64,000 nucleotides of DNA from Pseudomonadales bacterium. Its GTDB lineage: Bacteria > Pseudomonadota > Gammaproteobacteria > Pseudomonadales > JBECKS01. Each line of letters begins with the position of its first letter. Positions within the stretch are counted from its first letter, which is position 1. The notes under the pieces were generated by a model, which did not search any database, had not been told where the DNA came from, and worked only from the letters and a program-made list of their open reading frames with translations. Shown piece by piece: positions 1 through 22,759 of the stretch. Both the position numbers and the translations under genes were made by a program. The DNA lies in assembly GCA_965223975.1 (NCBI GenBank), contig OZ245031.1, positions 2,772,145 through 2,836,144 of the forward strand, given 5' to 3'.

Positions 1-2
1 CA

Positions 3-74
3 GTTGCGCTGGTTGTTTATTATCACTTCAACGTCGCACAAGTGCTCGATCAAATAGCAAAAGCGGTTAATTAA
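3..74 (+). CDS. 3' end of an upstream CDS entering from the window edge (C-terminus VALVVYYHFNVAQVLDQIAKAVN*). Possibly the membrane-anchor end of a TssL/DotU-type protein, judged only from its position directly before tssM
   Basis: My own translation. The frame is open from the window edge to TAA at 72-74 and the tail is hydrophobic. The function is a positional guess only. Confidence 0.3.
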   Translation, partial: VALVVYYHFNVAQVLDQIAKAVN

Positions 75-92: not shown

Positions 93-3000
93 ATGTTAAA
101 AAAGTTTCTCAAATTCCTTATGTACGCTCTGATCATAGCGCTGATATCCGGCTTGGTCATAGCTGTCTTTATTCTTCTTGGTCGCCCGGTAGAACAAGCA
201 TTTATAGTGCTTGGAGCATTGTTTGGTGTCTACTTTAGTTATCTGATTGGTCGAAAGCTTTATGTCAGATGGCGAGCAAGGAGTCAGGTTAAACGAGTCA
301 TAAATGAGGGACACCCTGATGAAGAAGATGACCTTGGTATGACTCCAAAGGAGCTTATAGGTTCCCTAAAATCTGGATGGCGTAGTGCAATTGGTAGCAT
401 CAAAAAATCTAATTTGAGATTAAAAGGTGATCCTTTATACGTTCTGCCTTGGTACATGGTTATTGGTAAGCCTCGTTCCGGTAAAAGTACTGCTTTAAAA
501 AATGCCAAACTGTTATTGCCTGATATTGATATCCCTAAACAGGGTGAGGGCTCTACCTTAAACTTAGATTGGTGGTTGTATGAGCAGGCGATTGTTTTGG
601 ATACAGCCGGTCGCTATGCGGTTCCAGATAATACCAAGCGAGATAAAAAAGAGTGGGGCACTTTGTTGTCAATGCTCTCTAGGCATAAACAAAAAGAGCC
701 GATCAATGGCGTTGTCCTAGTCATCGCAGCCAATCGTCTCCTTGAAAACACAGAAGACGAGTTGATGGAAGAGGGGCGACAAGTTCGCGCTAGTATCAAT
801 GAGTTAATGGAAAAACTGGAAGTTAAAGTTCCTGTTTATTTGATGATCACTAAGTGTGATTTGATCGAAGGCTTTAAAGATTGGTCTGATTATTTGCCTG
901 AAGAGTCGACCTTGCAAGCGATGGGGCATTTGCACGAGGGCGAATTATTAAATCTCGACGCGCACCTTGACAATATTTTCGACAGTATCGTCGATAGAAT
1001 GAAGGAACTGCGTATTTTAATGCTCGAGCGCAGCCAGTCACACAATGATACCTTGTTAACCCTTCCTTCCAAGCTAGAAGGTCTACGACGCGGTTTGCAT
1101 ATTTTTATAGGAACCGCATTAAAAGAAAATCCTTACCAAGATACCCCTCGATTTCGTGGATTGTTCCTAAGCTCAAGCCAATATATCAGTGATGACAAAG
1201 GTGAATTGGAAAGCCGCGGTTTGTTCCTACATGAGTTTTTCTCACGAGTGTTACCAGCTGATCGAGACCTGTTAGACAGTTTACCGAGTGCGGAACGGTT
1301 AAGGCGTGCTGTCAGGGAGTATGCCATCAGTATTGGTGGTGGAGTCACACTATTAACTCTGGCTGTTATCAGTATTCTTTTCGGCAGAGATATGGCTACC
1401 TTAAATGACATTGCCGACTCTTATCCCGAGATAAATATCGAAAAGCAAGACGTTAACCAGCGATTGATTGAGCTTTATACCCTGCGATCACTTATTCTCG
1501 ATCTGCAAGAGGCGCAAGACGAGTGGATTATTCCTTGGTACGGCAGGCTAGGTTATACACCTCAAGTACAACAGTTAACAGCAAGTTATAATGGCTCGGT
1601 TCAGGAGATTCTCAATGAGGCTTTGGATGAACCTTTGGCTAAAAATATGATCGATTTGCAAAGTAGCACAAGCAGTATTGCCGGAGGGTTGATTCGCCGC
1701 ATTAACTTACTTTCTACCCGATTGGACCCAGAACAAGAGGAGAGTTTAGAAGACAAGCCGCCGATCTCACCAGAGTACTTGGTGAGCGTTAACGAGGAGA
1801 TTTCTCAAGAGTCGGCTGGGTACTTCCAAGAATTGTATGTCTCATACCTGCAATGGCATAACAACGAAAGTGAACTGTTAGAAGAAAGAGCTGCTCTTCA
1901 GGGTGCTTTCGTGACGCTGATTAAACGTAATCACGGTAATTACAGCTGGATTATTGACTGGGCGAATCAACAGGGCATTCAACCGGTTGTTTTAAGTGAT
2001 TTCTGGCCAGGATCAATTAAGTTAAGAGATGCTCCCGAGATTGATGCTGCCTTTACTAAGGAAGGTCGAGAGTTCCTTAATGAATTTCTTGCAGAGTTAG
2101 AAGAAGCTAATGATGATGCCAGTCGCCTTTCAATGGTTAAGTCTGATTTCGAAGAATATTATAGGCGCGAATACGTTGAGGCGTGGGTAGCCTTTGCCGA
2201 GCGTTTTGATGAAGGTAAGTTGCAGTTGCGCAATCGTAAGGAGTGGTTGACCGCAGTGGATATAATGTCCAGCAGAGAAAACCCTTACTTTACCTTTATG
2301 GGACGCATGGTTCGTGAATTAGAACCATTAGAGCATTACGATGAGCTAGAAGGCTCGGTTATGTTTGAGTTCTTTTTAGAGGTGCAAGCATTTACAGGCG
2401 CCGACGTCGACTCGGGTGGAAGTAATAAGCAAGCCGCTAAGATGGGGCTTAAGCTCCTTGGTAAAATGGGTAAGGTTGGTAAGGCGCTTGCAAAAGCCGG
2501 CAAGCAGGGCATGAAAGCCAATAAAAAACTCAACAAGGGTAAGAAGAAAGGCGGTGTCGACTTAGATTCAGGTATTGTCGATGAGGCTTCAGCTGTTTTA
2601 GATGAGTATAAAGCAGCTTTGTCTGATGCCGCATTTAATTCCGAGGCTAAGTCTCAGTCTTACAGCTCTATCAGTACTTTGTTTGAAACGCCTGATAATC
2701 CAGGTGGTGGCAATGGACCACCCGCAGCGGCTTGGAATGCGATTAAAAAAATGCAGCAGCTGACGGGTAAACCTCGGCCTAGCACGCGCTTATTTTGGCA
2801 GCTTTACTCAGGACCGCTTAGTGTCGTTCATGATTACATGGAGCAAGAGACCAACTGTCAGCTACAGGATCGCTGGGAATCTGAAGTATTGGCCGAAGTG
2901 GTCGGTGTGTCTCAGAACAAGCTGGGAGAAGTTTTGATTGGCGAAGGTGGATTGGTGTGGAACTTTGTCGAAAATACTGCTTCGCCATTCTTAAATAAAC

Positions 3001-3551
3001 GGGTAAAAACTGGGTATGTTCCAGCGACCGCAAATAAACGCCGGATCAACTGGAGCGATGACTTTTTAGGATTCCTAAATGAAGCCGCCTCTGGCCAATA
3101 CATTGTCGGTAATGAGTTTAATGTCCAAATTAACACTCTGCCAACAGGCGTCAATATAAACGCGGCTATCTCGCCTTATGCAACCTTTTTAGAGTTGCAC
3201 TGTGCCGGTGGTATTCAAACACTGTCTAACTTTAACTACTCCGACGGCTATGACTTTAAATGGTCTTTGGAAGAGTGTGGAGACGTATCTTTACAGATTG
3301 ACATCGGACCGGTCAGCCTGCGTAAACACTACCGTGGAGTTAAGGGATTTAGTAAGTTCTTAGCGGACTTCCAAGATGGGCGACGGATCTTTACCGCAGA
3401 TGAATTTCCTAACCAAGCATCACAACTTAGCAATGAAAATGTGACGGCTATTGACGTCAACTATGAAATCTTTGGGCAAGAGCCTGTTATTCAGGTTCTC
3501 AATTCGGTGCCACTTGAGCCACCGAGAAACATAGCAGCCTGTTGGCCATAA
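93..3551 (+). CDS. tssM: T6SS membrane-complex protein TssM (IcmF family)
   Basis: 1152 aa. Two N-terminal TM helices, Walker A motif VIGKPRSGKST, a third TM near residues 415-435 (AISIGGGVTLLTLAVISILFG), then a long periplasmic IcmF-type region. Lies directly upstream of the sheath, hcp and baseplate genes. Confidence 0.9.
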   Translation: MLKKFLKFLMYALIIALISGLVIAVFILLGRPVEQAFIVLGALFGVYFSYLIGRKLYVRWRARSQVKRVINEGHPDEEDDLGMTPKELIGSLKSGWRSAIGSIKKSNLRLKGDPLYVLPWYMVIGKPRSGKSTALKNAKLLLPDIDIPKQGEGSTLNLDWWLYEQAIVLDTAGRYAVPDNTKRDKKEWGTLLSMLSRHKQKEPINGVVLVIAANRLLENTEDELMEEGRQVRASINELMEKLEVKVPVYLMITKCDLIEGFKDWSDYLPEESTLQAMGHLHEGELLNLDAHLDNIFDSIVDRMKELRILMLERSQSHNDTLLTLPSKLEGLRRGLHIFIGTALKENPYQDTPRFRGLFLSSSQYISDDKGELESRGLFLHEFFSRVLPADRDLLDSLPSAERLRRAVREYAISIGGGVTLLTLAVISILFGRDMATLNDIADSYPEINIEKQDVNQRLIELYTLRSLILDLQEAQDEWIIPWYGRLGYTPQVQQLTASYNGSVQEILNEALDEPLAKNMIDLQSSTSSIAGGLIRRINLLSTRLDPEQEESLEDKPPISPEYLVSVNEEISQESAGYFQELYVSYLQWHNNESELLEERAALQGAFVTLIKRNHGNYSWIIDWANQQGIQPVVLSDFWPGSIKLRDAPEIDAAFTKEGREFLNEFLAELEEANDDASRLSMVKSDFEEYYRREYVEAWVAFAERFDEGKLQLRNRKEWLTAVDIMSSRENPYFTFMGRMVRELEPLEHYDELEGSVMFEFFLEVQAFTGADVDSGGSNKQAAKMGLKLLGKMGKVGKALAKAGKQGMKANKKLNKGKKKGGVDLDSGIVDEASAVLDEYKAALSDAAFNSEAKSQSYSSISTLFETPDNPGGGNGPPAAAWNAIKKMQQLTGKPRPSTRLFWQLYSGPLSVVHDYMEQETNCQLQDRWESEVLAEVVGVSQNKLGEVLIGEGGLVWNFVENTASPFLNKRVKTGYVPATANKRRINWSDDFLGFLNEAASGQYIVGNEFNVQINTLPTGVNINAAISPYATFLELHCAGGIQTLSNFNYSDGYDFKWSLEECGDVSLQIDIGPVSLRKHYRGVKGFSKFLADFQDGRRIFTADEFPNQASQLSNENVTAIDVNYEIFGQEPVIQVLNSVPLEPPRNIAACWP

Positions 3552-3578: not shown

Positions 3579-5354
3579 GTGGCAGATGATGTTCAACAAT
3601 TAGAAAGAGTTCGAATGATCTACAATTCGAGCGGCCCAAATGGGGACGAAGAGGTAGAATTACCTTTTCGTATCCTTGTGTTGGGCGATTTTACGAGCAA
3701 TGAGGCCTCAGAATACCTAGACCAACAGATGCCAGAAAACATTACCGAGGGTAACTTTAATTCGGTAATGAGAAAGCTTTCACCAGAATTGAACTTACAA
3801 GTTGATAACAAGCTATCGGAAAGTTCTGATCAGCCCTTCGTTTGCGAATTTGCGTTTCATTCCCTGAACGATTTCAGCCCCGAATATTTCATTAAACAGT
3901 CACCTGAGCTGCGTATCCTATGTGAACTTCGTCAGCAACTGATTGATATACGAGCTGATAACTCAGAGGTGTCATTAGATCGTTTCTTTGGTGGCGAAGT
4001 GGGTGGCTCTGTAGCCAGTGAGTTTTTGCTCAGCATGGGCATTAACGAAGGTGAAACAATTGACGAAGTGCTGCTCGATTCAAGTACCACTGAGCTAGAC
4101 GAATGTTTAAGCCGTCAGGTGGACGCTATTCTTCATCATCCGAAATTTCAAGCACTCGAATCAGCGTGGAGAAGTTTGCACTTTTTGGTATCTAGAGTGA
4201 ACTTCGAAGAAAATATTTTGGTAGAAATTTTAAATATCTCAAAGCAAGGCTTAGCCGAAAACTTTGAAGACGTTCCCGAAACTATTCAATCTGAGCTTTA
4301 TAAGATTATTTACAGTGAAGAATTTGGTCAATTTGGAGGTCGCCCTTATAGTTGTATGGTGGCCAATTATATTTTCTCACCGTCTGCTCCCGATATTTGG
4401 CTGCTCCAACAAATAGCGAGTGTCGCGGCCATGTCTCATTCGCCTTTTCTAGCGGCTGCTGGCCCTGAGTTTTTTGATATCGACAGTTTTTCTGGGCTCG
4501 CACGCTTACGCGATTTATCAGCAAACTTTGAGCAGCCTCGATTTGCTAAATGGAATAGCTTCCGAGAGAGTGAAGATGCACGTTACGTTTCCTTGTCTTT
4601 GCCAGGCTTTAAGCTTAGGAGTGATTATGGAAGCGATGGTAATCGAATCGGTGTCTTTGACTACCAAGAAAGAACATCCAAGAAAACCAAAGGTCTTTGG
4701 GGAAACGCGGCATTTGCATTCTGTTCTCGGCTAGTTGATAGCTTTGCTAAAACCCGCTGGTGCGTAAATGTGGTGGGTAAAGAGTATGGCAAGGTCGAAG
4801 GGCTACATATGTCCGAAGGTGGTGGCACAGCCACCTCAGATCGAAAAATTCCGACAGAGATATTAATTTCTGACAAGCGCGAAACGGAATTGGTTCGTTG
4901 GGGCTTTGTGCCTCTAACGGTCCATAAAGGCGATGATAGCGCGGCTTTTTACTCAGCGAACTCTGTTCAAGCTATTAAAGAGTTTCCAGATACGCCAGCT
5001 GGAAAGCAGTCTGCTATGAATCACCATTTGGGGTCGCAACTATCCTATTTATTTATTATTTCCAGATTGTCTCATTACATAAAAATGATGCAGAGAGAGC
5101 ATATAGGGTCTTGGAAAAATCGACATGACATCGAGCGTGAGTTGAGCGATTGGATTCGTCAGTATGTTGCAGACATGGATAACCCGACAGCGGGTGTTAG
5201 AGCACGTAGACCTTTAAGACATGCCAAAATTGCTGTTGAAGAGATAGAGGGTAAGGCAGGTTGGTACTTGATCGCCATGGCCGTTACGCCACACCTTAAG
5301 TACATGGGTTCTTACTTTACCTTAAAAGAAACTGGAAAGTTGGACAAAAATTAA
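3579..5354 (+). CDS. tssBC: T6SS contractile sheath protein, an apparent single-chain TssB-TssC fusion
   Basis: 591 aa, GTG start preceded by AAGAGG. Residues 1-125 follow the TssB/VipA pattern (ERVRMIYNSSGPNGDEEVELPFRILVLGDFTS; NFNSVMRKL; FHSLNDFSPEYFIKQSPELRILCELRQQL). Residues ~175-591 follow the TssC/VipB pattern (QVDAILHHPKFQALESAWRSLHFLV, then about 400 aa). The ORF is uninterrupted. Confidence 0.85.
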   Translation: MADDVQQLERVRMIYNSSGPNGDEEVELPFRILVLGDFTSNEASEYLDQQMPENITEGNFNSVMRKLSPELNLQVDNKLSESSDQPFVCEFAFHSLNDFSPEYFIKQSPELRILCELRQQLIDIRADNSEVSLDRFFGGEVGGSVASEFLLSMGINEGETIDEVLLDSSTTELDECLSRQVDAILHHPKFQALESAWRSLHFLVSRVNFEENILVEILNISKQGLAENFEDVPETIQSELYKIIYSEEFGQFGGRPYSCMVANYIFSPSAPDIWLLQQIASVAAMSHSPFLAAAGPEFFDIDSFSGLARLRDLSANFEQPRFAKWNSFRESEDARYVSLSLPGFKLRSDYGSDGNRIGVFDYQERTSKKTKGLWGNAAFAFCSRLVDSFAKTRWCVNVVGKEYGKVEGLHMSEGGGTATSDRKIPTEILISDKRETELVRWGFVPLTVHKGDDSAAFYSANSVQAIKEFPDTPAGKQSAMNHHLGSQLSYLFIISRLSHYIKMMQREHIGSWKNRHDIERELSDWIRQYVADMDNPTAGVRARRPLRHAKIAVEEIEGKAGWYLIAMAVTPHLKYMGSYFTLKETGKLDKN

Positions 5355-5440: not shown

Positions 5441-5926
5441 ATGCCAATACCCTGCCATTTAAGCATCGTCGGTGAACTTCAGGGTGATATCGAGGGTGAT
5501 TGTGAGTTTGAAGGCCGCGAGGGGACTATACTGGTTCAATCTGTCGATCATGTTGTAGAGATTCCAACCGATAGCCGTGGCGCGTCTACCGGGCGTCGTG
5601 TTCATCGCCCCTTAACGGTGACCAAAGAAATTGATTCATCGACACCGATGTTATACCAAGCCTTGTGCACAGGAGAACGTTTAACTGAAGTGACTCTAGA
5701 TTGGTATCGTATCGATGAGAGCGGCCTCGAGGAGCTTTACTACGTCGTCTATATGGAGAATGTCATTATTAATAGAGTTCGCCCCTGGATGCCCAATGCG
5801 CTTGATGGAAACAACTCTGGTATGAGGCATATGGAAGACGTTTCTTTTACCTATGAAAAGATCCGTTGGACTTGGGAGCTTGACGGTATTGAGTATGAAG
5901 ATGCTTGGGGAGAGATGTTCGAGTAA
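5441..5926 (+). CDS. hcp: T6SS inner tube protein Hcp (TssD)
   Basis: 161 aa. Hcp-family pattern (HRPLTVTKEIDSSTPMLYQALCTGERLTEVTLDWYR) and typical size. Good RBS. Positioned between the sheath gene and tssE. Confidence 0.9.
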   Translation: MPIPCHLSIVGELQGDIEGDCEFEGREGTILVQSVDHVVEIPTDSRGASTGRRVHRPLTVTKEIDSSTPMLYQALCTGERLTEVTLDWYRIDESGLEELYYVVYMENVIINRVRPWMPNALDGNNSGMRHMEDVSFTYEKIRWTWELDGIEYEDAWGEMFE

Positions 5927-5931
5927 GCCTT

Positions 5932-6354
5932 ATGTCTACGGAACGCCTATTAAAAAGAATTCGCACCTGGAGTGAAAATGAGGATGCTTCTAGCGAAGTT
6001 GATCTAGAAGCTTTTATAAACTCCGTGCTCGCTGATTTGGAAAAGGTGTACAACACCAGACAAGGTACGGTGGTAACCGATGAAAAGTTTGGCCTTCCTG
6101 ATTTCACCAGTTTAATGAATACAATGTCACCACCAGAAATCGAGGATTTAGGCGACAACATAGAAGATGCAACGATGAACTATGATCAACGAATTAAGAA
6201 TGCTATTTCGCGTTATCAAAAGCGAGAGGATGATATGGGCGTGGTTAGGTTTTCTATTACCGCTAAGCTTCAATTTCGAGATCAATTAATTCCTTTAAGT
6301 TATGACGCATTGCTACAGGGTGACGGTAGCGTAAGTATAAATCGAGCGTCTTAA
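5932..6354 (+). CDS. tssE: T6SS baseplate protein TssE (gp25-like)
   Basis: MSTERLLKRIR...SVLADLEKVYNTRQGT matches the TssE/GPW-gp25 pattern. The ORF track begins at a TTG at 5905 inside hcp. I prefer the in-frame ATG at 5932, just after the hcp stop. Confidence 0.85.
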   Translation: MSTERLLKRIRTWSENEDASSEVDLEAFINSVLADLEKVYNTRQGTVVTDEKFGLPDFTSLMNTMSPPEIEDLGDNIEDATMNYDQRIKNAISRYQKREDDMGVVRFSITAKLQFRDQLIPLSYDALLQGDGSVSINRAS

Positions 6355-6370: not shown

Positions 6371-8104
6371 ATGAATACTGAAAAATATCAAAATGAATTA
6401 AACAATCTGAGAGAGTTAGCCGTTGAGTTTGCAGAAAAGCACCCGGCCTTAGCGCCTCAACTCAGTGGTCCTAGCCCCGATCCTGATGTCGAACGCATTT
6501 TGGAGGGGGTCGCGTTTTTAACTGGTAATATTCGTCAACAGCTCGACGATGATTTTCCGGAGTTTGCTCAAGGCTTGATGCAAATGATTTTCCCACATTA
6601 TTTGCGACCATTGCCTTCGGCTACCATTATGGAGTTCAATCCCAAAAGCATTTTAAAAACCGCTTTAAATATCCCTAAAGGGACCATGATTGATTCGAAA
6701 GAAGTCGAAGGAGCTAGTTGTCGTTTTGGGACTTGTTATGATGTGGATATCGCTCCGGTTACCTTGTCAAACGTTTCTGTTAAAGAAGAAGGTGCAGGCA
6801 AGAAAGCGATTGAGTTAAATGTTAACTTAAACGGCATCGAGCTTCATGACTGGATTGATGATAGTCTAATTTTTTACTTAGGTGGTGACTTTGTTGGTGC
6901 CAGCGAACTGTTCTATCTTCTGAATCATCATTTATCGGGTATTGATTTAATAAGTAATGAAAGGCGCGTTGTACAGCTGGCGTCTTCATCGCTAGAGGCG
7001 ATTGGCTTCGATCGCGATAGCTCTATGATTCCTTTCCCAAAAAATGGATTTCCTGCGTATCGCATGGTTCAGGAATATTTTTTGTTTAAAGAAAAGTTCA
7101 TGTTCTTAAAAATTAAGGATTTAAAGAACTTTGAGACTAAGAGCCATTTTACACTTCGCTTTAATTTGACTGAGGTGAATATTAAACTCCCTCGAATCAG
7201 CGATGAGCGTTTTGTGCTCCACGCAACGCCTGCAATAAATTTGTTTGAAAAAAACGCAGAACCGATTAAATTGGATCTTCGTCATAGCGATATTAGAATT
7301 AAACCCGCTCAGAGCCGATCTAAGGGCGTGGAGTCGCAAGATCAGGTCTACTCCGTTGATTCGGTCATTGGGCATAATCGCAGGGCAGCAAAGGAGACTG
7401 AATATCACCCAATAGGTCTATTTCGTTCTCCCTTCGAAGATGAACCTGTTTCTCAAGTCACGTTTAAAACCAACGACGAAAGTGACGAAGTAGAGCCATA
7501 TGTGAGTATCCATTATCCCCCCGATTATGAATTTCAAGGATCAGAGACTTTATCTATTAAGCTCACCTGTACCAACGGGCATCTACCTTCTCAATTAAGA
7601 CCAGGCGATATATCCAGACCAACCAGCAGCACCTCTGACTTAGTCGAGTTTAAAAATATTAGCCGTCCGACAGCATTGCAACAACCACCCATGGATAGTG
7701 GCTTGTTATGGCGCTTGCTCTCTCACTTATCCCTCAACTATTTGTCCATAGCCGATGCTGAAAATTTAAAGGCCTTGTTAAACCTTTATATTTTCCCAAA
7801 TGGGAGTTCTGCCTTAGAAGAATCAATGAACCGAAAGCGCGTACAAGGCATTGTTGAAGTAGATGTTGTACCCGCAAACCGACTGGTAAAAGGATCATTA
7901 CTTCGCGGCCAAGATATTCGAATCAACCTAGACGGTAGTCATTATGCTAGTGTTGGCGATCTATATTTGTTTGCGACTTTACTTGAACAACTCTTTAATA
8001 GCTTTGCCAGCTTAAACTGTTATACAGCCACTCAGGTGACCGATGTTCATACGGGAGTTGAATATTCTTGGCCCGCGCGCATGGGAGGCAAACCATTAAT
8101 ATAG
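6371..8104 (+). CDS. tssF: T6SS baseplate protein TssF
   Basis: 577 aa. N-terminus YQNELNNLRELAVEFAEKHPALAPQL...DPDVERILEGVAFLTGNIRQQLDDDFPEF...PHYLRPLPS is the classic TssF signature. Confidence 0.9.
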   Translation: MNTEKYQNELNNLRELAVEFAEKHPALAPQLSGPSPDPDVERILEGVAFLTGNIRQQLDDDFPEFAQGLMQMIFPHYLRPLPSATIMEFNPKSILKTALNIPKGTMIDSKEVEGASCRFGTCYDVDIAPVTLSNVSVKEEGAGKKAIELNVNLNGIELHDWIDDSLIFYLGGDFVGASELFYLLNHHLSGIDLISNERRVVQLASSSLEAIGFDRDSSMIPFPKNGFPAYRMVQEYFLFKEKFMFLKIKDLKNFETKSHFTLRFNLTEVNIKLPRISDERFVLHATPAINLFEKNAEPIKLDLRHSDIRIKPAQSRSKGVESQDQVYSVDSVIGHNRRAAKETEYHPIGLFRSPFEDEPVSQVTFKTNDESDEVEPYVSIHYPPDYEFQGSETLSIKLTCTNGHLPSQLRPGDISRPTSSTSDLVEFKNISRPTALQQPPMDSGLLWRLLSHLSLNYLSIADAENLKALLNLYIFPNGSSALEESMNRKRVQGIVEVDVVPANRLVKGSLLRGQDIRINLDGSHYASVGDLYLFATLLEQLFNSFASLNCYTATQVTDVHTGVEYSWPARMGGKPLI

Positions 8105-9072
8105 AAGAGGAGCTATACGAATACGGCGAAGATTTTGATTTCTTCCAAGCCGTAAGACTTTTATCTCGTTTGCAAGTGCAAGCGGGAGAAGCCTCTTCGA
8201 CCTCAGAAGCCTTAAAAAAATTAAGAATTCACCCAGAGCTTAGTCTTGATTATCCAGATAGTGCCATAAGTTCTATCGAAGAAGATGAAAAAGGTGGTGC
8301 GGAGATAGTTACGACCTTTATGGGACTGTATGGTATTTCTTCCCCATTGCCTAATTTTTATACCGAAGAGCTTTTAGATGAAGAGTGGCATGAGCAAAAT
8401 GCCTCTAAAGACTTTTTAGATATCATTCATCATCATCTTTACCCTGTGCTTTTTGAAGCCTGGGAGAAGTATCGCTTTGGCTATCAAGCTGTAGAGCAAA
8501 AAAACCATAAGTATTGGGACGTATTATTTAGTTTGATAGGGCTTTCGGATCAAGAATTTAGAAGTCTAGCTAAAATGCCTGAGCGCTTTTTACCGTACCT
8601 TGGGATGCTTGCTCAGAGGCAAAAATCTGCCTTAGGATTGGAAACTATATTAAAAAATGTATTGAGTACCGATCTTATTGAAATCGAATCCAGTGTTTTG
8701 CGGCAGGTGCCGATACCGAAGGAGCAATTTTGTCGTTTAGGTGGAGCGCAACTGGGAGAGACCTCGGTTATTGGTGATAGCATAGAAGACCGCATGGGGT
8801 GTGCTCATATTCATATTGAAGGTATTACCCAGGAAAAATTTCACCAATTTTTGAATGACAAAGAGTTTATAGAATTCATTTGGCTGCTAATGGACTTTTA
8901 CTTAATAGAGCCAATCGAAATTGAACTCATTTTACATCTAACTGATGATACCGTTAAACCAGCTGTTTTAGGCCTAGGTGCCTGGTCCTCGTTAGGAAAA
9001 GACACTTGGTTGGACGGAAATCATCAACAGGTCACGCGAGTTGTATTAAGTCGTGAAGATTGTTTGCACTAA
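8068..9072 (+). CDS. tssG: T6SS baseplate protein TssG
   Basis: Has the FDFFQAVRLL motif near the N-terminus, typical size and position after tssF. The only in-frame start upstream of the motif is TTG at 8068, which overlaps tssF by 37 nt, so the start is uncertain. Confidence 0.85.
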   Translation: MARAHGRQTINIEEELYEYGEDFDFFQAVRLLSRLQVQAGEASSTSEALKKLRIHPELSLDYPDSAISSIEEDEKGGAEIVTTFMGLYGISSPLPNFYTEELLDEEWHEQNASKDFLDIIHHHLYPVLFEAWEKYRFGYQAVEQKNHKYWDVLFSLIGLSDQEFRSLAKMPERFLPYLGMLAQRQKSALGLETILKNVLSTDLIEIESSVLRQVPIPKEQFCRLGGAQLGETSVIGDSIEDRMGCAHIHIEGITQEKFHQFLNDKEFIEFIWLLMDFYLIEPIEIELILHLTDDTVKPAVLGLGAWSSLGKDTWLDGNHQQVTRVVLSREDCLH

Positions 9073-9102: not shown

Positions 9103-12039
9103 ATGAGTTATTTAGAAACTGCTAATTCCGCTAAATTCAGTTTGATTATTGAAGGGGTTTCAGAAACGCTCGGCTTGATCAGTTTTACTGGGCAAACAGC
9201 CATATCTTCCCTCTATTATTTTGATTTAATGTTGGTCAGCGACAACGAGGATTTAGAAGATCTCCCTGGATTATTTACCAGTAACGTCAGCATGATCTTT
9301 CACAAGGCGGAGGCTGATAAAGAGCACGAAGTTCACGGTGTGTTTTCAGAATTCGAGCAAATTAAGCAAACCCAATACGATGGTCGTAACTACACCTTAT
9401 ATAAGGCGAGAATGGTTCCTAAGCTATGGTGGCTGACTTTAAGTAAACGCAACCAGGTTTTTTTAGAAAAGTCCGTACCAGACATAATGACTGAAATTTT
9501 AGAAGACAGCGATTTAGCTTCTTCAGATTTTAACATGGCTGAGCTAGGGTCTTATGAGGACAACGATTACGTATGCCAGTTTAATGAAAGTCACTTTGAT
9601 TTTATTTCAAGATGGATGGAGCGAGAGGGCATTTATTACTATTTTGATCATGAGGCCGAAACCGAGCAGGTGATTTTTGTCGATACCTTGTCTTCACATG
9701 ACGAACCCTTTGATAAAGAGATTGCCTATAAGCCAGATCGTGACCTTAGTGATACAACCAAGAGCCGCTTTATCCAGACCTTTACTGGGCGACAAAAACA
9801 ATTGCCTCAAATGGTCTATCTCAAAGATTATAACCCCGAGCGTCCTTCACTCTACGTTGAGGCCTCAGCGACCGTAGATGAGATGGGGCGGGGTGAAGTA
9901 TATCTGTATGGTGATCACTTCGCCGATCCGGAAGAGGGTTCGCGTTTAGCGTTTATTCGAGCTGAACAAATGCTATCTGAGCAAAAGGAATTTTTTGGAG
10001 AAAGCACAGCAAGTGCGTTAGCTCCCGGATATATTTTTACTCTCGGGCGTCACTATCGAGACTCTTACAATGCTAAATACCTGGTAACTGAAGTAAGCCA
10101 TGAAGGGTCACAGGCTTCATGTATAAAGAGCGATATATTAACAGGGCTTGGACTTTCAGTAGAAGATGTACCGTATTCCAATAGTTTTAAGGCGATACCC
10201 GCCGACACCCAGTTTAGACCTAGGCAAAGCATTGAGCGGCCAAGAATTTCAGGCACATTAAATGCTAAAATTGATGCCGAAGGTGATGGTGCCATGGCCG
10301 AAGTCGATGAGTACGGGCGGTATAAAGTTAAACTACCTTTCACACAAACCGATGATATCCTAGACGGCAAGGCCTCAGCATGGCTTCGCATGATTCAACC
10401 TCACGCAGGCGAAAATCAAGGTATGCAATTTCCCTTAAGGAAAGGTACTGATGTGGTTGTGTCTTTTATAGATGGTCATCCAGATAGGCCAATTATTGCC
10501 GGCGCTGTAAATAACCCAGAAACCCCAGGGGTTGTTACTGCTGAAAACCATAATGTTGGATTTATAGCGACCGAAGACTTATTAGCTACCCGAGCCCTAG
10601 GTGGAGCACACCGTGATGTTGCTTCCAAAGGTCCTAGCTTTGACGGTGTTACTCCTTATGATGATTTTCGTCGCAATCATCAAACCAATTTTAGTGATGA
10701 CGATTGGCAGTTTCCAAAGCTCGACCCCATAGGCAAGGGCGCCGTTACACCGGGCGGTGATTACAATGCGCTTGAAGGTTTTATTGCGAATAACGCCGCT
10801 CCCGATAACGACGGTATTCCGGGCGAATATAGTGGCCAGTATCTGATTAAACGCGAATACGGTGATCAGTATTGTTGGGGAGATGGCAAAGTCTATAGCT
10901 GGGATAATCAACTGGCATTTACCTACGGTAATGATTATGAAGAAATTCACGAAATTGATGACCCTGAAACCGGTGAAGGATACAAACAACGTTTGCCACT
11001 AACCGTCGATGAGTCTGATAAGGATAGCGTTCTTAATGTAAATAATTTTGATCCAACGGGTCGTGAGGGGCATGACGGATATGATGATATTCATTACCCC
11101 GAATCCGTGTATGGAGTAGCTTATAACTCATTTAACGATGGTGAACCCTGGGAAGATGGAGGGAATGGCCTAACGGAAAAAAACTGGGGTGATAAAGTTG
11201 AATTCCATATGGGGCGTAGTTTTAATTTCAGTGGTGGTCCAGGGCCTGGCGGTTCCAATGAGGCTTACAACTATGGTAATGGCTACAGCGAGGACTTGTT
11301 AGAAAAAACCTACGGTAACTTCGCTCAACATTATGGCGATACTCGTCATGACCGAATATTTGCAGCTACTGCTCCAGTGACAATTAATGTCGGTATAGCT
11401 TCAATGTCTAAAGCAGCCGGTCATAGCTATTCCTATACACGCGGCGTTAGTTATGACGTGGTAGAGGATTTGGATGCGTATTCAGAAACCTATGGCGGTA
11501 CCAGCGAAGACTACGTTTATACTTCGATGGGTATACCCCGTTCCAAAACTGTTGAAAAGAACGATATGGGCATGACTGAAGAGACTATTTATGACGTCAC
11601 CTCAGGTATTCCTGTTTCATTTTCTACCGAATCTACCTCTGGCGGAGCTACTGCAAGCTTTAAAACCTCTATGGGTGCGGTTGCTGAGCTAGAAACTCGT
11701 CTAGCTGCAACCTCAACTACTGAAGTAAATGTCGGCGCAGTAATGAATATTGTGGCTAATGCTGGTGCATTCATGGATGTGTCGAGTACTTTAGGAGCCA
11801 TGGTAGAAGTTGGCACACATGTTGTTCACATCGAGGTGGATTCTGCACTGGGTGTAGAAATGAAATTTCCAGGTATGAAGGTGGCTCAAGACCCATTGGT
11901 TAAATTGGAGAATACCATTACAGCTATTCAAGCTGCGACTTGTACCATATCTTCTGAGTTAGCTGCGGTGGTCGCCAATGGTGTCGAAGTGACCACCACG
12001 CCGATTCAATTGAATACAGGAATGGATATCACCGTATGA
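9103..12039 (+). CDS. vgrG: T6SS spike protein VgrG (TssI) with an atypical long region after the gp5 OB-fold
   Basis: 978 aa. gp27-like N-terminal two-thirds and a gp5-like OB-fold (RYKVKLPFTQTDD...ASAWLRMIQPHAGENQGMQFPLRKGTDVVVSFIDGHPDRPIIAGAVNNPETP, ending near residue 475). Then ~330 aa rich in G/D/Y/N/E. Then ~170 aa with short beta-helix-like periodicity (EVNVGAVMNIVANAGAFMDVSSTLGAMVEVGTHVVHIEVDSALGVEM). Confidence 0.9.
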   Translation: MSYLETANSAKFSLIIEGVSETLGLISFTGQTAISSLYYFDLMLVSDNEDLEDLPGLFTSNVSMIFHKAEADKEHEVHGVFSEFEQIKQTQYDGRNYTLYKARMVPKLWWLTLSKRNQVFLEKSVPDIMTEILEDSDLASSDFNMAELGSYEDNDYVCQFNESHFDFISRWMEREGIYYYFDHEAETEQVIFVDTLSSHDEPFDKEIAYKPDRDLSDTTKSRFIQTFTGRQKQLPQMVYLKDYNPERPSLYVEASATVDEMGRGEVYLYGDHFADPEEGSRLAFIRAEQMLSEQKEFFGESTASALAPGYIFTLGRHYRDSYNAKYLVTEVSHEGSQASCIKSDILTGLGLSVEDVPYSNSFKAIPADTQFRPRQSIERPRISGTLNAKIDAEGDGAMAEVDEYGRYKVKLPFTQTDDILDGKASAWLRMIQPHAGENQGMQFPLRKGTDVVVSFIDGHPDRPIIAGAVNNPETPGVVTAENHNVGFIATEDLLATRALGGAHRDVASKGPSFDGVTPYDDFRRNHQTNFSDDDWQFPKLDPIGKGAVTPGGDYNALEGFIANNAAPDNDGIPGEYSGQYLIKREYGDQYCWGDGKVYSWDNQLAFTYGNDYEEIHEIDDPETGEGYKQRLPLTVDESDKDSVLNVNNFDPTGREGHDGYDDIHYPESVYGVAYNSFNDGEPWEDGGNGLTEKNWGDKVEFHMGRSFNFSGGPGPGGSNEAYNYGNGYSEDLLEKTYGNFAQHYGDTRHDRIFAATAPVTINVGIASMSKAAGHSYSYTRGVSYDVVEDLDAYSETYGGTSEDYVYTSMGIPRSKTVEKNDMGMTEETIYDVTSGIPVSFSTESTSGGATASFKTSMGAVAELETRLAATSTTEVNVGAVMNIVANAGAFMDVSSTLGAMVEVGTHVVHIEVDSALGVEMKFPGMKVAQDPLVKLENTITAIQAATCTISSELAAVVANGVEVTTTPIQLNTGMDITV

Positions 12040-14885
12040 TCGATGTCATCGCGCCTATGCAGATACTGCCGATGAAAACGGTGGTAGAGCGGGACAATAC
12101 CTTCCATTTAATTATGTCTGCTACGCTGGGCATTGATTTAAGTAATAACAATGCGCTGCTTTCTTTTGACTACATAAAAGATGCTTTAGAGAGCATGGAT
12201 AGGCCGCCGATGCTGGATATGGGTATGCCTAAACCACACGGTGAATTTATGGTTTCCGGTAAATTCTTTGCCCCAAACCAGCAGGCAGTAGACGCTGGTG
12301 AGGTCAAAGTATGTATCGGTGACCAGCAAAAAAGTCTCTATGTATTTGGCCCTCGCTCTTGGCAAGCTGGGTTTCCTTCGAAACCTGAACCCATCGAGTC
12401 CTTACTTCTAGATTATCAGTTCGCGATGGGCGGCGATAACTACCCAGAAAACCCAGAGGGCATGGGGTATGAGCAGGAGCAGCTGCCTCAAATTGAATAC
12501 CCTAATCAGCTAGTAGATTCGCCAAAAGCACAAGTCTCACCGGCGGGCTTAAGTGCCATCGATATTACCAACCCCCAGCGCGCACAATATCATGGAACCT
12601 ATGACGGCCAGTATTTAGAGAAATATTTCCCCGGCTATCCTGCAGATATGGATTGGCGAATGTTTATGTGTACGCCACCTGATCAATGGTCAAAGGGATT
12701 TTATAATGGTGATGAGAAATTTTCCTTACATAATATGCATCCAAACGAAGCACTTATCGAGGGCCAATTACCATCATTGAAAACACGCTGTTTTCTCCGC
12801 AGCAAGCCCGGTGTGGCGCAACAGTCTAATATTCAAGAAATCCCCATGAACCTCGATACTGTGTGGTTTTTTCCAGAAGTCAAAATTGCTTTATTGATTG
12901 CTCGGGGTGGTATTGAAATAAATGACGATGAAGGAGATGACTTCGATACCGTACTGTTTGCGTATGAACGACACGATGAGGTTCGCAGTCCTGATTATTA
13001 TAAAGAGGCGATGGACCTTCGCTTGGATACCAAGGATCGATTGCTTTATAACCTCTGCACTCATGACCTAATTCCAAGCGATCATAAGTCAGCTATGGAG
13101 ACCCTACAATTGATGGGGGAAGAATCAGCTGATAATAGTGAATTCTCGAAAAACCTAGCCCATAAAACGGAGTCCATCCAAAATGAGGTGGATGAAAAGG
13201 TAGAAAAGGCTCTTAAACAAAGCGAAGAGCAAATGGCAGCGGCAAATATCGGTGAAGAACATAAACCGGATATTCGGGCAATCCTTAAGGAACCTAAAAC
13301 CGATCCCGAAATTGAGGCATTAAATGCCAAACTAGAGAAAATATTGCCCGGTATAACTGGTAAAGATGGCAAGAGCTTGGAGTTAAAAAACCTAACCAGC
13401 GCAAAGATTGAAGAGGTCATTCAGACCAGTAAAGAATTCTCTGATAAAAAAAATGAAGAAGCTCAACAAATGATAAGGGAAGAGCTTCTTAAGATTCGTC
13501 AGGAGCTGAAAGACCAGTTGAAGATGGAATTGCCAGAGGAAAGCAAAAAATCCCTGGAGCAGGCACTTACAGTCATAGAAGGTATGCTAGAAAGTGAGCC
13601 GCCTCCTACAGAGTTGCCAAGAGTTGATTCTCAAGCTTTAATTGATCGTTTTCAGCAAGCATCTCCAGAGAGTATGCAGTACATGCAGCAAATTGCCTTG
13701 ATGCGGGCCTCGGGTGGAGATGAAAAAGCCATTTCGGTGCTCGAAAAGCAATTAAAAGATCTCGAGGACTTTAAAGAGAATGAAATGAAAACGGCGCTAA
13801 TAGAGGCCGAAAAAACCTTTAAGGATGGATATTTAAAGGGCGCTCATTATACAGCTAAAGGGCTATCTCCCCACGAAGATGACGCAACGGTGCGTGGCCA
13901 GCTGATAAAAAAAATTAGTTTGAGAGAGGATGTCAGTCAACAAGACTGGGCTTGTTTAGACTTAAGTGCTCAAGATTTAGCTGGAGTGGATTTTAGCGGT
14001 TGTTATTTGGAACAAGTTGATTTTAGCGGAGCCGACCTAAGCGGAGCAAATTTTAGCCAAGCAAACCTAGCAAGAGCTAAGCTAGAAAATGCAAATTGTA
14101 TCGGCGCCAATTTTGAGGGTGCCAATCTGGGCGCAGTATTAGGAAACGGTTGTAACTTTACAGACGCGACTCTTCACGAGGCGCAACTCAATTTAAGCGA
14201 TTTTCAGAATTCAAACTTTACGCGAGCGAAACTTGATCTGGCGTTAATCCTAGAGATTAATGTAGACGGCGCGAATTTTAGCGAGGCCCAATTAGAAAAA
14301 GTACAGTTCTTAGATATCGAATTGAATGATGTTGATTTCTCAAATGCTAATCTTGTTAGTGCAGTGTTTATTAATTGCATAATTAACCGGGTCAATTTTA
14401 GCGGAGCTAAAGCATCTAGCACTATATGGACCAATATTCCTTTTACTGATGTTAAGTTTGATGATGCTGATATTACCTCAGCGTGCTTTGCACCCTCTGA
14501 AGAAGGCAAGACTTCGATGGAGTCGGTTAGTTTAGTAAGAGCTATAATGGACAAGAGTAATTTCCAGGGGATGCCCATGCAGTCGTGTGACCTGACTGAA
14601 GCGTCAATGGAAAATGCAATAATGATGGAAGCTGATTTAAAAGGCGCAAATCTTACTGGCATTAAGGCGAAGGGCGCATCTTTTCGAAAAGCATCTTTAG
14701 AAAATGCTCTTTTAAAAAACGCCGACCTAAGGGATGGTATTCTTTCTAAAGCGAATTTGGTGGGCGCTAATTTTGTGGGCGCTAATTTGTTTAGAGCCGA
14801 TCTAATCCGATCTTCTATGAAAAACACCGATTTTCTTGCAAGTAACCTTGATGCCACCCTGATTAAAGACTGGAGGCCCTCATGA
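12036..14885 (+). CDS. DUF2169-like N-terminal domain + Glu/Lys-rich coiled-coil + pentapeptide-repeat C-terminal domain (TagAB-like T6SS accessory protein)
   Basis: 949 aa. The ATG overlaps the vgrG stop (ATGA). The first ~330 aa resemble the DUF2169 proteins found after vgrG genes. Residues ~340-620 are EK-rich and helical. From nt ~13950 there are tandem A(D/N)LxX pentapeptide repeats (DFSGADLSGANFSQANLARAKLENANCIGANFEGANLGAV...). Confidence 0.8.
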   Translation: MIDVIAPMQILPMKTVVERDNTFHLIMSATLGIDLSNNNALLSFDYIKDALESMDRPPMLDMGMPKPHGEFMVSGKFFAPNQQAVDAGEVKVCIGDQQKSLYVFGPRSWQAGFPSKPEPIESLLLDYQFAMGGDNYPENPEGMGYEQEQLPQIEYPNQLVDSPKAQVSPAGLSAIDITNPQRAQYHGTYDGQYLEKYFPGYPADMDWRMFMCTPPDQWSKGFYNGDEKFSLHNMHPNEALIEGQLPSLKTRCFLRSKPGVAQQSNIQEIPMNLDTVWFFPEVKIALLIARGGIEINDDEGDDFDTVLFAYERHDEVRSPDYYKEAMDLRLDTKDRLLYNLCTHDLIPSDHKSAMETLQLMGEESADNSEFSKNLAHKTESIQNEVDEKVEKALKQSEEQMAAANIGEEHKPDIRAILKEPKTDPEIEALNAKLEKILPGITGKDGKSLELKNLTSAKIEEVIQTSKEFSDKKNEEAQQMIREELLKIRQELKDQLKMELPEESKKSLEQALTVIEGMLESEPPPTELPRVDSQALIDRFQQASPESMQYMQQIALMRASGGDEKAISVLEKQLKDLEDFKENEMKTALIEAEKTFKDGYLKGAHYTAKGLSPHEDDATVRGQLIKKISLREDVSQQDWACLDLSAQDLAGVDFSGCYLEQVDFSGADLSGANFSQANLARAKLENANCIGANFEGANLGAVLGNGCNFTDATLHEAQLNLSDFQNSNFTRAKLDLALILEINVDGANFSEAQLEKVQFLDIELNDVDFSNANLVSAVFINCIINRVNFSGAKASSTIWTNIPFTDVKFDDADITSACFAPSEEGKTSMESVSLVRAIMDKSNFQGMPMQSCDLTEASMENAIMMEADLKGANLTGIKAKGASFRKASLENALLKNADLRDGILSKANLVGANFVGANLFRADLIRSSMKNTDFLASNLDATLIKDWRPS

Positions 14886-15934
14886 ATAGTGCTGAGCTTT
14901 CAAGGCTGGTTAAAACGGGGGAACTGTTTAGTGGCAATGACTTCTCAGGCCTGGATTGCCGAGAGGTTGATCTGTCGGGCGCGGTGTTTTCTGAGGTCAA
15001 CTTTGATCGATGCGATTTTTCAGCTGCGAATTTGGTCGACGCGACATTTAACATGTGCAGTATCAAAGGAGCTGTGTTCGATAATAGTCAGCTTAAATCG
15101 GCTAATTTTGTTGGCTGTCAGGGGGCGGAAAGCAGTTTTGATCAAGCCGACTTAGAAAAAACTAAGTTCGTTCAGTCTGAATTGATCGATGCTCGATTTT
15201 CTAATACTCGCTTGATCCAGACAACCTTTGTTGAGTCGAATCTGTGCCGTATAGATTTAAGTGATAGCTACATTGAAGCGGCTCCATTTACAGACTCAGA
15301 TCTTACCGGTATCCAATTTAAGCAAACTGAATGCGTCAAAGTGGTATTCTATCAATGTCTTTTCAAAGATATCGATTTGTCACAGTGCCGTTTTGAGCTT
15401 TGCGGCTTTATAAAATCGGATTTAAGTGGTTTGGATTTTTCTGGCTTGGATTTGTGCCAGAGTCAATTCATCGAAAGCCAGGTAAAAGCCTGCGACTTTT
15501 CAAACTGTGAATTAAAACAAGGTGGGTTTATGGCTGCCGATTTGGAGTCGTCAAACTTTGACAATACAAACCTTGAAACAGCTAACTTTTATGAGGCGAA
15601 TCTAACCAAAGCTAGTATGAAAAACGCGAACTTAACAATGGCTAGCCTGCAGAAAGCTACTATCGATTTTGCTAATTTGGCATGGGCGAAGTTAGAAAGG
15701 GCGCAAATGGAAGAAGTTAAAATAAATGTATCAATTTTTTCTAATGTTGATTTGACCTACGCTGATTTATCGCATGCAAGAATTATTGATAGTGATTTTT
15801 CTGGTGCTTCAATGAGCAATACTAATATGCATGAAGTACTAGAGGATAAAAATATTTGGGACGGCGCAACCAAGCCCTTGTCTTGGCCAACCGATGAAGA
15901 GAGAAAAAAAGCAGAAACCTGGGGTGCGAAATGA
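14882..15934 (+). CDS. Pentapeptide-repeat protein (TagB-like)
   Basis: 350 aa, almost entirely pentapeptide repeats (DLSGAVFSEVNFDRCDFSAANLVDATFNMCSIKGAVFDNSQLKSANF...). ATGA overlap with the upstream gene. Confidence 0.85.
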   Translation: MNSAELSRLVKTGELFSGNDFSGLDCREVDLSGAVFSEVNFDRCDFSAANLVDATFNMCSIKGAVFDNSQLKSANFVGCQGAESSFDQADLEKTKFVQSELIDARFSNTRLIQTTFVESNLCRIDLSDSYIEAAPFTDSDLTGIQFKQTECVKVVFYQCLFKDIDLSQCRFELCGFIKSDLSGLDFSGLDLCQSQFIESQVKACDFSNCELKQGGFMAADLESSNFDNTNLETANFYEANLTKASMKNANLTMASLQKATIDFANLAWAKLERAQMEEVKINVSIFSNVDLTYADLSHARIIDSDFSGASMSNTNMHEVLEDKNIWDGATKPLSWPTDEERKKAETWGAK

Positions 15935-16608
15935 GTATTGAGTCTGCAAAAGTAATCGCTTTGGAAAGTAAATCGCTAGAAACTACTGGCGTTAAACTCG
16001 AACAAACTAAAGTCGGTCAAACTAATAATCTAAAAGAAGTAATTATTAATTTGGAAGGTGAGGAAAAGACAGCAAAGGTATCATTCAGCTGTTTGGTTGC
16101 TCCTCAGGTAAACGATAGCGTACTGATAGCAAGCAACGAAAAAGGTGAATATTTTGTGCTTAGTATTCTCGAACGTAGTGAAAGTTCACAGGAAATGACG
16201 CTGGCATTTCCAGATACAGCGAATTTAGTAAGCGCTAGTGGGGCGATTAATTTACTTTCGACAGAGAGTATTTCTATGACTACTCAAAGTTTAAACTCAG
16301 TTGCCCATAATAGTGTTTATAAATCTGCACAGACTATTGTTGATTTTGAGGAACTGACTGCAAAGGGGAAAAGCGCCACGGTAAGTATCCCTAATATGAG
16401 GATTCTAGCCGATAATATCAGCACTGTTGCCAAACAAGCGGTTCAAAAATTTGCAAACTACGTTAGACGAACAGAATCTTTTGATAAAGTTCAGGCAGGC
16501 CAAATGAATAGGAATGTCGATGGACTTTTTTCGGTAGATACAAAATATACAGTTATGTTGAGTGATAAAGATACTAAGATCGATGCCGAACGCATCCACA
16601 TGGGCTAG
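15931..16608 (+). CDS. Hypothetical T6SS-associated protein, probably DUF3540 family (TagC-like)
   Basis: 225 aa. ATGA overlap with the upstream pentapeptide gene. Size, position between the pentapeptide and DUF4150 genes, and the pattern AKVSFSCLVAPQVNDSVLIASNEKGEYFVLSILER fit my recollection of DUF3540. Not verified. Confidence 0.6.
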   Translation: MSIESAKVIALESKSLETTGVKLEQTKVGQTNNLKEVIINLEGEEKTAKVSFSCLVAPQVNDSVLIASNEKGEYFVLSILERSESSQEMTLAFPDTANLVSASGAINLLSTESISMTTQSLNSVAHNSVYKSAQTIVDFEELTAKGKSATVSIPNMRILADNISTVAKQAVQKFANYVRRTESFDKVQAGQMNRNVDGLFSVDTKYTVMLSDKDTKIDAERIHMG

Positions 16609-16617
16609 GAGAGAACT

Positions 16618-17028
16618 ATGTTTGCCAACAGTCAATTGATGAGTTTAAACCTTGGCTTTCCCGATGTGTGTTTAACGCCCACGCCAGCAGGTCCAATCCC
16701 GGCACCCTATCCAAACATTGCAGTTGGAACGATTGCAATACCACCTACTGCATCTCTTAAGAATTTACTGACCATGATGCCTGCTCACAACATGGTCACC
16801 ACCATTCCGATCAGCAACGGTAATGAAGCGGGGTGTAGTCCAGGAGGAGTCGCCTCTGGAATGTTTATTGGGCCCGGTAGGCACTTGATGGGTAGTTTTA
16901 AGGTGATGTTTGCGGGTACGCCAGCAACTAGGGCTTTAACAGACAGCACCTTGCAAAACTCAACTAATGTTCCAGGTGCCGGTAGAAACCTATTACCCTC
17001 GCAGTTCAAGGTAATCTGTTGTCTTTAA
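16618..17028 (+). CDS. PAAR-like spike-tip protein (DUF4150 family), no toxin extension
   Basis: 136 aa. The N-terminus LGFPDVCLTPTPAGPIPAPYPNIAVGT matches the DUF4150 signature (PDVC.TP....P.PYPN). The protein ends shortly after the core domain. Confidence 0.8.
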   Translation: MFANSQLMSLNLGFPDVCLTPTPAGPIPAPYPNIAVGTIAIPPTASLKNLLTMMPAHNMVTTIPISNGNEAGCSPGGVASGMFIGPGRHLMGSFKVMFAGTPATRALTDSTLQNSTNVPGAGRNLLPSQFKVICCL

Positions 17029-18750: not shown

Positions 18751-19012
18751 GGGACACCTTCCTTTACGCTCGCTTTAGAGCAGCTCATTATTATTTTATC
18801 TGCAACAGTTAAGTATACTAACGTGTTTAGTTGAATAGGCACAACTCCAAGTAGCCATGTATTGCAGCTACCTCTGCATCAATAAGCTAACCCTAGTTTG
18901 TAGAGGCTTACGAACCGCCACAATCAGCCCTAGAGGATCATCTGAACGTCGATCTATGGGTAACACGATGTTATAGTGCTTGAGTATCATTATATTTAGT
19001 AAGGTTTTTAAA

Positions 19013-20398: not shown

Positions 20399-20434
20399 TT
20401 CATCTCTCCTTTGAAAAAAAATCCTTTAGTAATT

Positions 20435-22732: not shown

Positions 22733-22759
22733 ACGATATTATTTTTATAATTCTGCTAA

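Follow-up and report, generated by a model that had tools for sequence, protein, structure and literature searches.

A conserved TssB-TssC fusion predicted to lack the ClpV handle, very probably a second sheath paralogue in type VI secretion clusters of marine Gammaproteobacteria

In a 64,000-nucleotide stretch from a Pseudomonadales bacterium (assembly GCA_965223975.1, contig OZ245031.1, positions 2,772,145 to 2,836,144), here called the window, a type VI secretion system (T6SS) cluster contains a gene whose product joins the two sheath subunits TssB and TssC in one chain. We conclude that this protein represents a conserved family of predicted single-chain T6SS sheath protomers without the ClpV-binding handle. 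Comparison with related loci further indicates that it is very probably a functional second sheath paralogue, blind to ClpV, in a T6SS with two sheaths. An initial annotation, made from the letters of the window alone, had recognized the fusion but took the fused protein to be the sheath of this machine; the canonical sheath module found in 13 of 13 related loci speaks against that part.

The fused architecture is evident from domain searches. The gene starts with GTG, 7 nt after AAGAGGA and 27 nt after the stop codon of tssM, and its 591-amino-acid (aa) product gives three mutually non-overlapping Pfam matches: T6SS_VipA (PF05591) at residues 8-126 (profile positions 6-125 of 155, E 5.6e-28, 98.1 bits with a cut-off of 24), VipB (PF05943) at residues 170-464 (E 2.6e-107, 358.8 bits, cut-off 27) and VipB_2 (PF18945) at residues 479-587 (E 2e-39, 134.7 bits, cut-off 27). 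The NCBIfam equivalog for TssC, TIGR03355, covers residues 158-589 with profile positions 42-473 of 473 (529.5 bits, cut-off 271.5). Its counterpart for TssB, TIGR03358, aligns residues 6-127 to positions 7-129 of 160 and stays slightly below the cut-off (95.0 versus 97.25 bits) because positions 130-160 are absent from the fused protein. Aligned to solved structures, residues 5-126 match TssB/VipA 7-127 and residues 155-588 match VipB from about residue 57 (E ~1e-149). These results bear out the TssB-like nature of residues 1-125 and the covalent 1:1 protomer put forward in the initial annotation, and the TssB and TssC motifs on which it relied lie where it placed them.

The exact extent of the two parts was mapped by profile-profile alignment (HHalign) against canonical TssB and TssC from related loci. 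Residues 1-126 correspond to TssB 1-128 of 163 and residues 142-591 to TssC from about residue 42 to its end, so that the C-terminal 35 residues of TssB and the N-terminal ~41 residues of TssC are exchanged for ~15 unconserved residues. Since TssB ends at residue 126 and TssC starts at 142, the true non-homologous connector measures about 15 aa and not the ~50 aa first proposed; the acidic character then ascribed to it holds, but a Gly/Ser composition does not. Counted from the TssB part to the main TssC helix (residues 127-162), this region spans 29-44 aa across the family and is acidic and Leu/Ser-rich. The junction has no homology to TssB or TssC, its column identity is 0.14-0.34 and its AlphaFold2 pLDDT lies at 73-79.

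The deletion removes the site through which ClpV recognizes the sheath. The N-domain of ClpV binds TssC at its N-terminal helix, and deletion of this helix abolishes ClpV-TssC binding (PMC5048182). The canonical TssC encoded beside the fused gene in relatives retains ISLLDQIMEQTR at the ClpV-binding helix; nothing in the fused protein can be aligned with it, and positions 1-41 of TIGR03355 are unmatched. The profile mapping thus agrees with the earlier suggestion that the lost parts are the TssB C-terminus and the extreme N-terminus of TssC with its ClpV-binding helix. The same segments belong to domain 3, the T6SS-specific outer layer, to which VipB contributes three N-terminal helices and VipA two C-terminal ones (PMC4632598; PMC5807055). 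In the AlphaFold2 model of the fused protein (pLDDT 84, pTM 0.88), one TssB helix (H109-127) and two TssC helices (H145-152, H163-185) are left of it. Domain 3 is thus predicted to be cut to a minimal helical remnant from which the second TssB C-terminal helix is gone. Where canonical TssB is a separate chain of ~165 aa with two C-terminal helices in domain 3, we find an in-frame fusion that stops at TssB position 128.

The elements of polymerisation, as judged from the alignments, are all kept: the TssB N-terminal and TssC C-terminal donor strands as well as domains 1 and 2. The N-terminal donor strand closely resembles the canonical one (dRVNLVY..VELPFRvLVlgDfT in the fused protein, ERVNIvY..VELPLKlLv.GDfT in TssB), and so does the C-terminal strand (FtLsEtgKLdK compared with FTLSLVGKLDK). 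The model shows the TssC fold, including the C-terminal gp25-like domain and its donor strand, and the C-terminal FTLxETGKLDKN is conserved. Foldseek superimposes the model on VipB and on Myxococcus xanthus TssC, with 3J9G and 5URW among the matches, at target-normalised TM-scores of 0.87-0.90.

The fusion is no peculiarity of one assembly. Among the best 120 homologue clusters, 94 are 570-602 aa long, contain all three domains and share 45-60% identity, so orthologues are fused as well. They come from Saccharospirillaceae, Marinicellulosiphila megalodicopiae, Ectothiorhodospiraceae, Azotimanducaceae and other marine gammaproteobacterial metagenome-assembled genomes (MAGs). At the DNA level the continuous fused open reading frame (ORF) is found on about 30 independent contigs (L001-L008, L010, L015, L027, L037, L085-L090, L094-L109), which rules out an assembly collapse or a frameshift. 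A metagenome scan for relatives of the window protein found no close one. A neighbour-joining tree of 145 TssC cores groups the fused proteins in a single clade on a long stem of 0.24 substitutions per site, and in a 67-taxon subset this clade has a bootstrap of 100/100, which indicates a single origin of the family. The clade lies within T6SS-i TssC diversity; an ancestral unsplit sheath is thereby ruled out, and the nesting identifies the protein as a secondary re-fusion.

The family shows the marks of purifying selection. Seventy-five columns are invariant among 40 diverse members. As synonymous sites are saturated in all available pairs, we compare only the proportions of nonsynonymous and synonymous differences (pN and pS) and give no dN/dS. 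pN amounts to 0.19-0.31 in the TssC part, where pS is saturated, to 0.38-0.50 in the TssB part, and to 0.47-0.66, about equal to pS, in residues 127-162.

The context of related genes shows that the fused protein is not alone. An upstream flank of ~7 kb or more is available for 13 distinct related loci. All 13 have the same co-directional cluster upstream, (tssA)-tssB-tssC-(clpV)-hcpA-tssJ-tssK-tssL-tssM, and in each of them HcpA is accompanied by canonical TssC, by ClpV or by both; in 10 loci canonical TssC itself was observed. ClpV follows TssC in nine loci (L001, L003, L004, L008, L010, L085, L088, L094, L101). No clpV lies between tssC and hcpA in the other four (L002, L006, L096, L097), though their canonical TssC has a ClpV-binding-type helix. 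The fused gene comes after tssM, and in every locus with downstream flank it is immediately followed by a second Hcp gene, hcpB, and then by TssE-TssF-TssG. Fused clusters therefore hold two sheath and two tube sets for one baseplate and one membrane complex. With a canonical sheath beside the fused gene in every relative that can be checked, the protein is best understood as a trimmed second sheath subunit and not as a replacement. Among the 13 are L085 and L088, whose fused proteins share the subclade of the window protein in the tree, and L094 from a sister clade at 40% identity, and the upstream synteny of the window with its relatives holds into TssL. As the window opens inside tssL, the corresponding canonical module would fall beyond its left edge, and within the 64 kb no further tssB, tssC or clpV was found.

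The two sheaths do not look like products of a recent duplication. The fused protein shares 49-51% identity with the co-resident canonical TssC, and HcpB shares 38-42% with HcpA, values too low for a recent duplication within the cluster. The nearest single-sheath clusters, of Desulfobacterota-type and from other genomes, are ordered tssJ-K-L-M-(tagF)-tssA-tssB-tssC-hcp-tssE-F-G-clpV-vgrG-DUF2169. The fused gene occupies the tssB+tssC slot of this order, and fused clusters lack the tssA and clpV belonging to it. TssK, TssL, TssF, TssG and HcpB of fused clusters are nearest to the Desulfobacterota-type order (TssK 40% versus 22-24%), whereas HcpA, canonical TssC and TssA are nearest to the VipAB/Pseudomonas-type (HcpA 59-63% versus a median of 42%). 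This pattern suggests a mosaic in which another module replaced or supplemented the TssA, ClpV and main tail of a native backbone of TssJKLM, TssEFG and HcpB. The backbone's own sheath would have been fused and trimmed. The TssA of the canonical module in fused clusters measures 808 aa (L002:1-890; ImpA_N + VasJ), and that of related single-sheath clusters (L012:8339-9910; L022:8089-9723) 523-582 aa, about 250 residues less. Among single-sheath clusters (L009, L040, L048, L050, L051, L057; L020, L034, L042) the Hcp slot is HcpB-like or HcpA-like and some carry tandem hcp pairs, so that swapping or duplication of Hcp lineages seems common in this cluster type.

Both sets evolve at different rates. 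When the same pairs of genomes are compared, mean identity over the final 100 aa is 66.5% for the fused and 84.5% for the canonical sheath protein, and mean Hcp identity is 62% (HcpB) and 73% (HcpA). Between L002 and L006, identity is 63% for the fused and 74% for the canonical TssC part, and 37.5% and 67%, respectively, for the TssB part. The pace of the fused protein is close to that of baseplate and membrane-complex proteins (TssK 53%, TssF 50%), unlike a main sheath polymer. Taken with pN and pS, these identities indicate that the fused sheath protein and HcpB change more rapidly than their canonical counterparts, yet under purifying selection.

Comparison with known contractile systems places the protein among T6SS-i sheaths. 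It shares donor strands and domains 1 and 2 with canonical TssB/TssC (VipA/VipB of Vibrio cholerae, PDB 3J9G and 5MXN; 48-52% identity by Foldseek). It differs in forming one chain instead of two, in lacking TssB 129-163 and TssC 1-41 with the ClpV handle and part of domain 3, and in being additional to the canonical pair, not a substitute. The sheaths of phage T4 (gp18) and R2 pyocin (PDB 3J9Q) likewise cover the span of TssB and TssC with one polypeptide and have no recycling domain, and the pyocin sheath lacks domain 3 (PMC5807055). They are, however, only remote fold matches (E ~1e-5, TM 0.37/0.53, and no more than 0.37 when query-normalised). The fused protein is thus no member of the single-chain sheaths of phages, pyocins, extracellular contractile injection systems (eCIS) or T6SS-iv; its nearest relatives are T6SS-i TssC proteins at 50-57% identity.

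The closest precedent is TssCL, the 'long TssC' of roseobacters described by Suria et al. in 2022 (PMC9515649), so a natural TssB-TssC fusion, of which the initial annotation was not aware, had already been described. TssCL has ~1,684 aa with two VipA domains, one VipB domain and a long N-terminal extension. It occurs in H1-like clusters alongside separate tssB and tssC and, according to its authors, nowhere outside Alphaproteobacteria; identity between its VipB domain and the co-resident TssC is only ~31%, and no function has been assigned to it (PMC9515649). The family described here resembles TssCL in carrying VipA and VipB on one chain and in coexisting with separate tssB and tssC, as seen in 13 of 13 relatives (the window itself is cut off). 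It differs in that the window protein has 591 aa, one VipA domain, ~50% identity to the co-resident TssC and a paired second Hcp, and in that its relatives belong to marine Gammaproteobacteria with another cluster order. A literature search found no follow-up work on TssCL, and phrase searches for natural TssB-TssC fusions returned, beyond TssCL, only fusions to fluorescent proteins. A fused extra sheath protein as such has thus already been published, but the compact gammaproteobacterial family has not, as far as the searchable literature shows; the latter is distinguished by the precise deletion of the ClpV handle and by the paired second Hcp.

Fused architectures were surveyed by an exhaustive search of 1.84 billion representative proteins combined with local domain mapping. 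The survey yielded 46 short forms like the window protein, 13 intermediate ones, 13 end-to-end full-length fusions (~640-660 aa) and 25 long or otherwise unusual forms, of which several resemble TssCL and have long N-terminal extensions. The fusions are scattered over several TssC lineages. Trimming of the junction recurs across the fused classes including the TssCL-like one, with TssB ending at ~125-145 and TssC starting at ~45-70. Many library proteins (P0126-P0273) contain both TssB and TssC domains, some in chains of 1,000-2,150 aa; P0252 (1,644 aa) is probably TssCL-like, P0157 has two tandem TssB-TssC units, and P0142 consists of scrambled repeats that may be an artefact. Exon chaining or faulty gene prediction was considered as a source of such fusions: the four checked at the DNA level are real ORFs, and the scrambled P0142 and P0157 are still suspect. 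Two full-length fusions have unusual surroundings. An orphan of 655 aa (P0211, L095:1703-3670) sits amid epimerase, TspO, ferritin, NifU and SLT genes on a 9-kb contig without T6SS genes and is followed by a 179-aa protein without a Pfam match. A 653-aa fusion (P0138, L091:10001-11962, also L092; NCBI MAG GCA_036479215.1) follows tssJ-K-L-M and directly precedes vgrG, with hcp, tssE/F/G and a separate sheath gene all absent within 10 kb and with a further 653-aa gene without a Pfam match upstream; it may be a case of a sole sheath.

What could a second, ClpV-blind sheath protein do? We tentatively favour a structural role at the base of the tail, although we give it less than an even chance: the fused protein and HcpB may form a small ClpV-resistant, baseplate-proximal layer under the canonical tail. 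The two proteins would assemble a thin sheath-and-tube layer docking on the native TssE/F/G/VgrG, and the recyclable canonical TssB/TssC/HcpA tail would polymerise on it. After firing, ClpV would strip the canonical part only. This layer is proposed on indirect grounds: the gene adjoins the baseplate genes, the native TssA and ClpV were lost in concert, the donor strands are compatible and the evolutionary rate is relaxed; assigning the fused protein to a class of baseplate-proximal adaptors would likewise draw on the place of its gene, its faster evolution and the missing ClpV handle. A different recycling of the whole machine, which the initial annotation considered possible, does not follow from the missing handle, and escape of the fused subunit alone from ClpV is more likely. 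The eCIS offer a functional analogy. Their clusters encode several sheath paralogues (Afp2/3/4; Pvc2/3/4) and tube paralogues (Afp1/5; Pvc1/5), some of which occur only in baseplate-proximal layers. The analogy is limited, as eCIS sheaths belong to another family (query-normalised Foldseek TM ~0.30-0.33) and to extracellular particles without ClpV recycling, and as the position in the T6SS tail is a prediction. We hold the more specific version, a heterotypic tail, with greater reserve: a permanent, covalent, ClpV-resistant TssBC ring with its dedicated Hcp would act as initiator, and a separately derived recyclable tail would be built on top. If true, no earlier T6SS would be known to have an initiator or adaptor layer of sheath and tube, such layers having so far been found only in phages and extracellular injection systems.

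Several points weigh against a baseplate-proximal layer. The position of the fused subunit in the tail and its copy number are inferred and not observed, and the presence of canonical tssB and tssC in the window genome is deduced from its relatives, the upstream DNA lying outside the window. The baseplate structure of the canonical V. cholerae T6SS shows neither an initiator tube nor an initiator sheath layer, and its authors state that T6SS clusters lack gp48/gp54-like proteins (PMC5813253). Because four of the 13 relatives have no clpV next to tssC, 'ClpV-blindness' may not be a selected trait there. The internal branches of the tree are short, so that the place of the fused clade among TssC lineages is tentative. 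Faster evolution, finally, would fit a second, less-used full tail as well.

That second tail is the strongest of the rivals, though we consider it unlikely. The fused protein and HcpB would then make up a complete sheath and tube that share the baseplate and membrane complex with the canonical set, are deployed under other conditions or with other cargo and are not recycled by ClpV. Each sheath gene does have its own Hcp behind it, the fused protein has all polymerisation elements, and its forerunner was presumably the only sheath that the ancestral cluster had; on the other hand, it evolves clearly faster than the co-resident TssC, which is unusual in a main sheath polymer, and the native TssA and ClpV are lost. 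We regard it as rather improbable that fused subunits are scattered through the canonical sheath and tune its stability, its contraction or the rate of its disassembly by ClpV. Near-identical handshake strands make mixed assembly plausible, but neither the strictly paired second Hcp nor the conserved place beside the baseplate genes would be explained by such a modulator. The view of the initial annotation, in which the fused protein replaces TssB/TssC in the window genome and is recycled by another route, is very improbable: the gap in the window that seemed to speak for it coincides exactly with the place where the canonical module lies in all 13 related loci, those of the own subclade and the 40%-identity sister clade included, and the shared upstream synteny extends to this edge, even if other fused lineages such as the 653-aa L091 fusion may stand alone. 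A decaying relic, with the fusion as the scar of a deletion in a native sheath that is redundant and being lost, would account for the accelerated evolution and the near-neutral connector but is scarcely credible given an intact ORF in every locus down to ~40% identity, the invariant positions, and a pN far below pS in the TssC part.

The features of the T6SS cluster in the window are collected in Table 1.

Table 1. Features of the T6SS cluster in the window (positions counted from its first nucleotide)
Feature	Position	Strand	Length and evidence
tssL 3' end (DotU family)	1..71	+	last 23 codons; frame-3 translation VALVVYYHFNVAQVLDQIAKAVN and stop, similar to the TssL C-terminus of L002
tssM	93..3551	+	1152 aa; Pfam IcmF-related_N, E 1.7e-53; 62% identity to L002 TssM
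fused sheath gene	3579..5354	+	uninterrupted ORF, 591 codons / 591 aa
TssB-like part, residues 1-126	3579..3956	+	Pfam T6SS_VipA; HHalign to TssB 1-128 of 163, probability 99.9; holds the N-terminal donor strand and the first C-terminal helix
junction, residues 127-141	3957..4001	+	~15-aa unconserved linker in place of TssB 129-163 and TssC 1-41
TssC-like part, residues 142-591 and stop codon	4002..5354	+	HHalign to TssC from ~42 to end, E 8e-178; Pfam VipB and VipB_2
second Hcp, HcpB	5441..5926	+	161 aa; Pfam T6SS_HCP, E 5.5e-34; NCBIfam TssD
tssE (gp25-like)	5905..6354	+	Pfam GPW_gp25
tssF	6371..8104	+	Pfam T6SS_TssF, E 9.8e-141
tssG	8068..9072	+	Pfam T6SS_TssG, E 2.1e-76
vgrG	9103..12039	+	978 aa; Pfam Phage_GPD and Phage_base_V; NCBIfam VgrG
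spike-support module, four genes: DUF2169-pentapeptide (949 aa), pentapeptide (350 aa), DUF3540, PAAR-like (Tox-PAAR-like)	12036..17028	+	Pfam

The Hcp of the window is clearly of the HcpB type, with 64-66% identity to the HcpB of relatives versus 39-42% to their HcpA. The longest tssE ORF, starting with TTG at 5905, overlaps the end of the hcp gene by 22 nt; since tblastn homology begins at 5932, the true start is probably located there. The DUF2169, pentapeptide, DUF3540 and PAAR-like set is known as TagA-D or Tvp accessory proteins (PMC13373197, PMC11883445, PMC13584744). A scan for promoters and terminators gave nothing above shuffle expectation, with no terminator around the fused gene, and the codon bias of fused versus canonical sheath genes (effective number of codons, and GC content at third codon positions) carried no expression signal. 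Past the T6SS cluster, the region 17362-27019 encodes a CLC chloride channel on the minus strand, a divergent pair of sensor histidine kinase (20906-22732, minus strand) and LuxR-type response regulator (22760-23416), and ORFs without a confident family at 18980-19831, 23490-24734 and 25520-27019, the last with weak SMC-like coiled-coil matches only. Genes of this region could be T6SS regulators or effectors.

The single published case, from roseobacters, greatly understates how widespread and varied TssB-TssC fusions are, and annotation pipelines label these proteins merely as 'large sheath subunit'. The family challenges the textbook view of obligate TssB/TssC heterodimers that are recycled by ClpV. 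It provides a natural test of covalent linkage, with the chains joined while domain 3 is cut to a stub, and an evolved subunit without the ClpV handle would be useful in studies of sheath disassembly. The presence of two sheath and tube sets per baseplate and membrane complex, finally, makes heterotypic tails a testable possibility in these bacteria.

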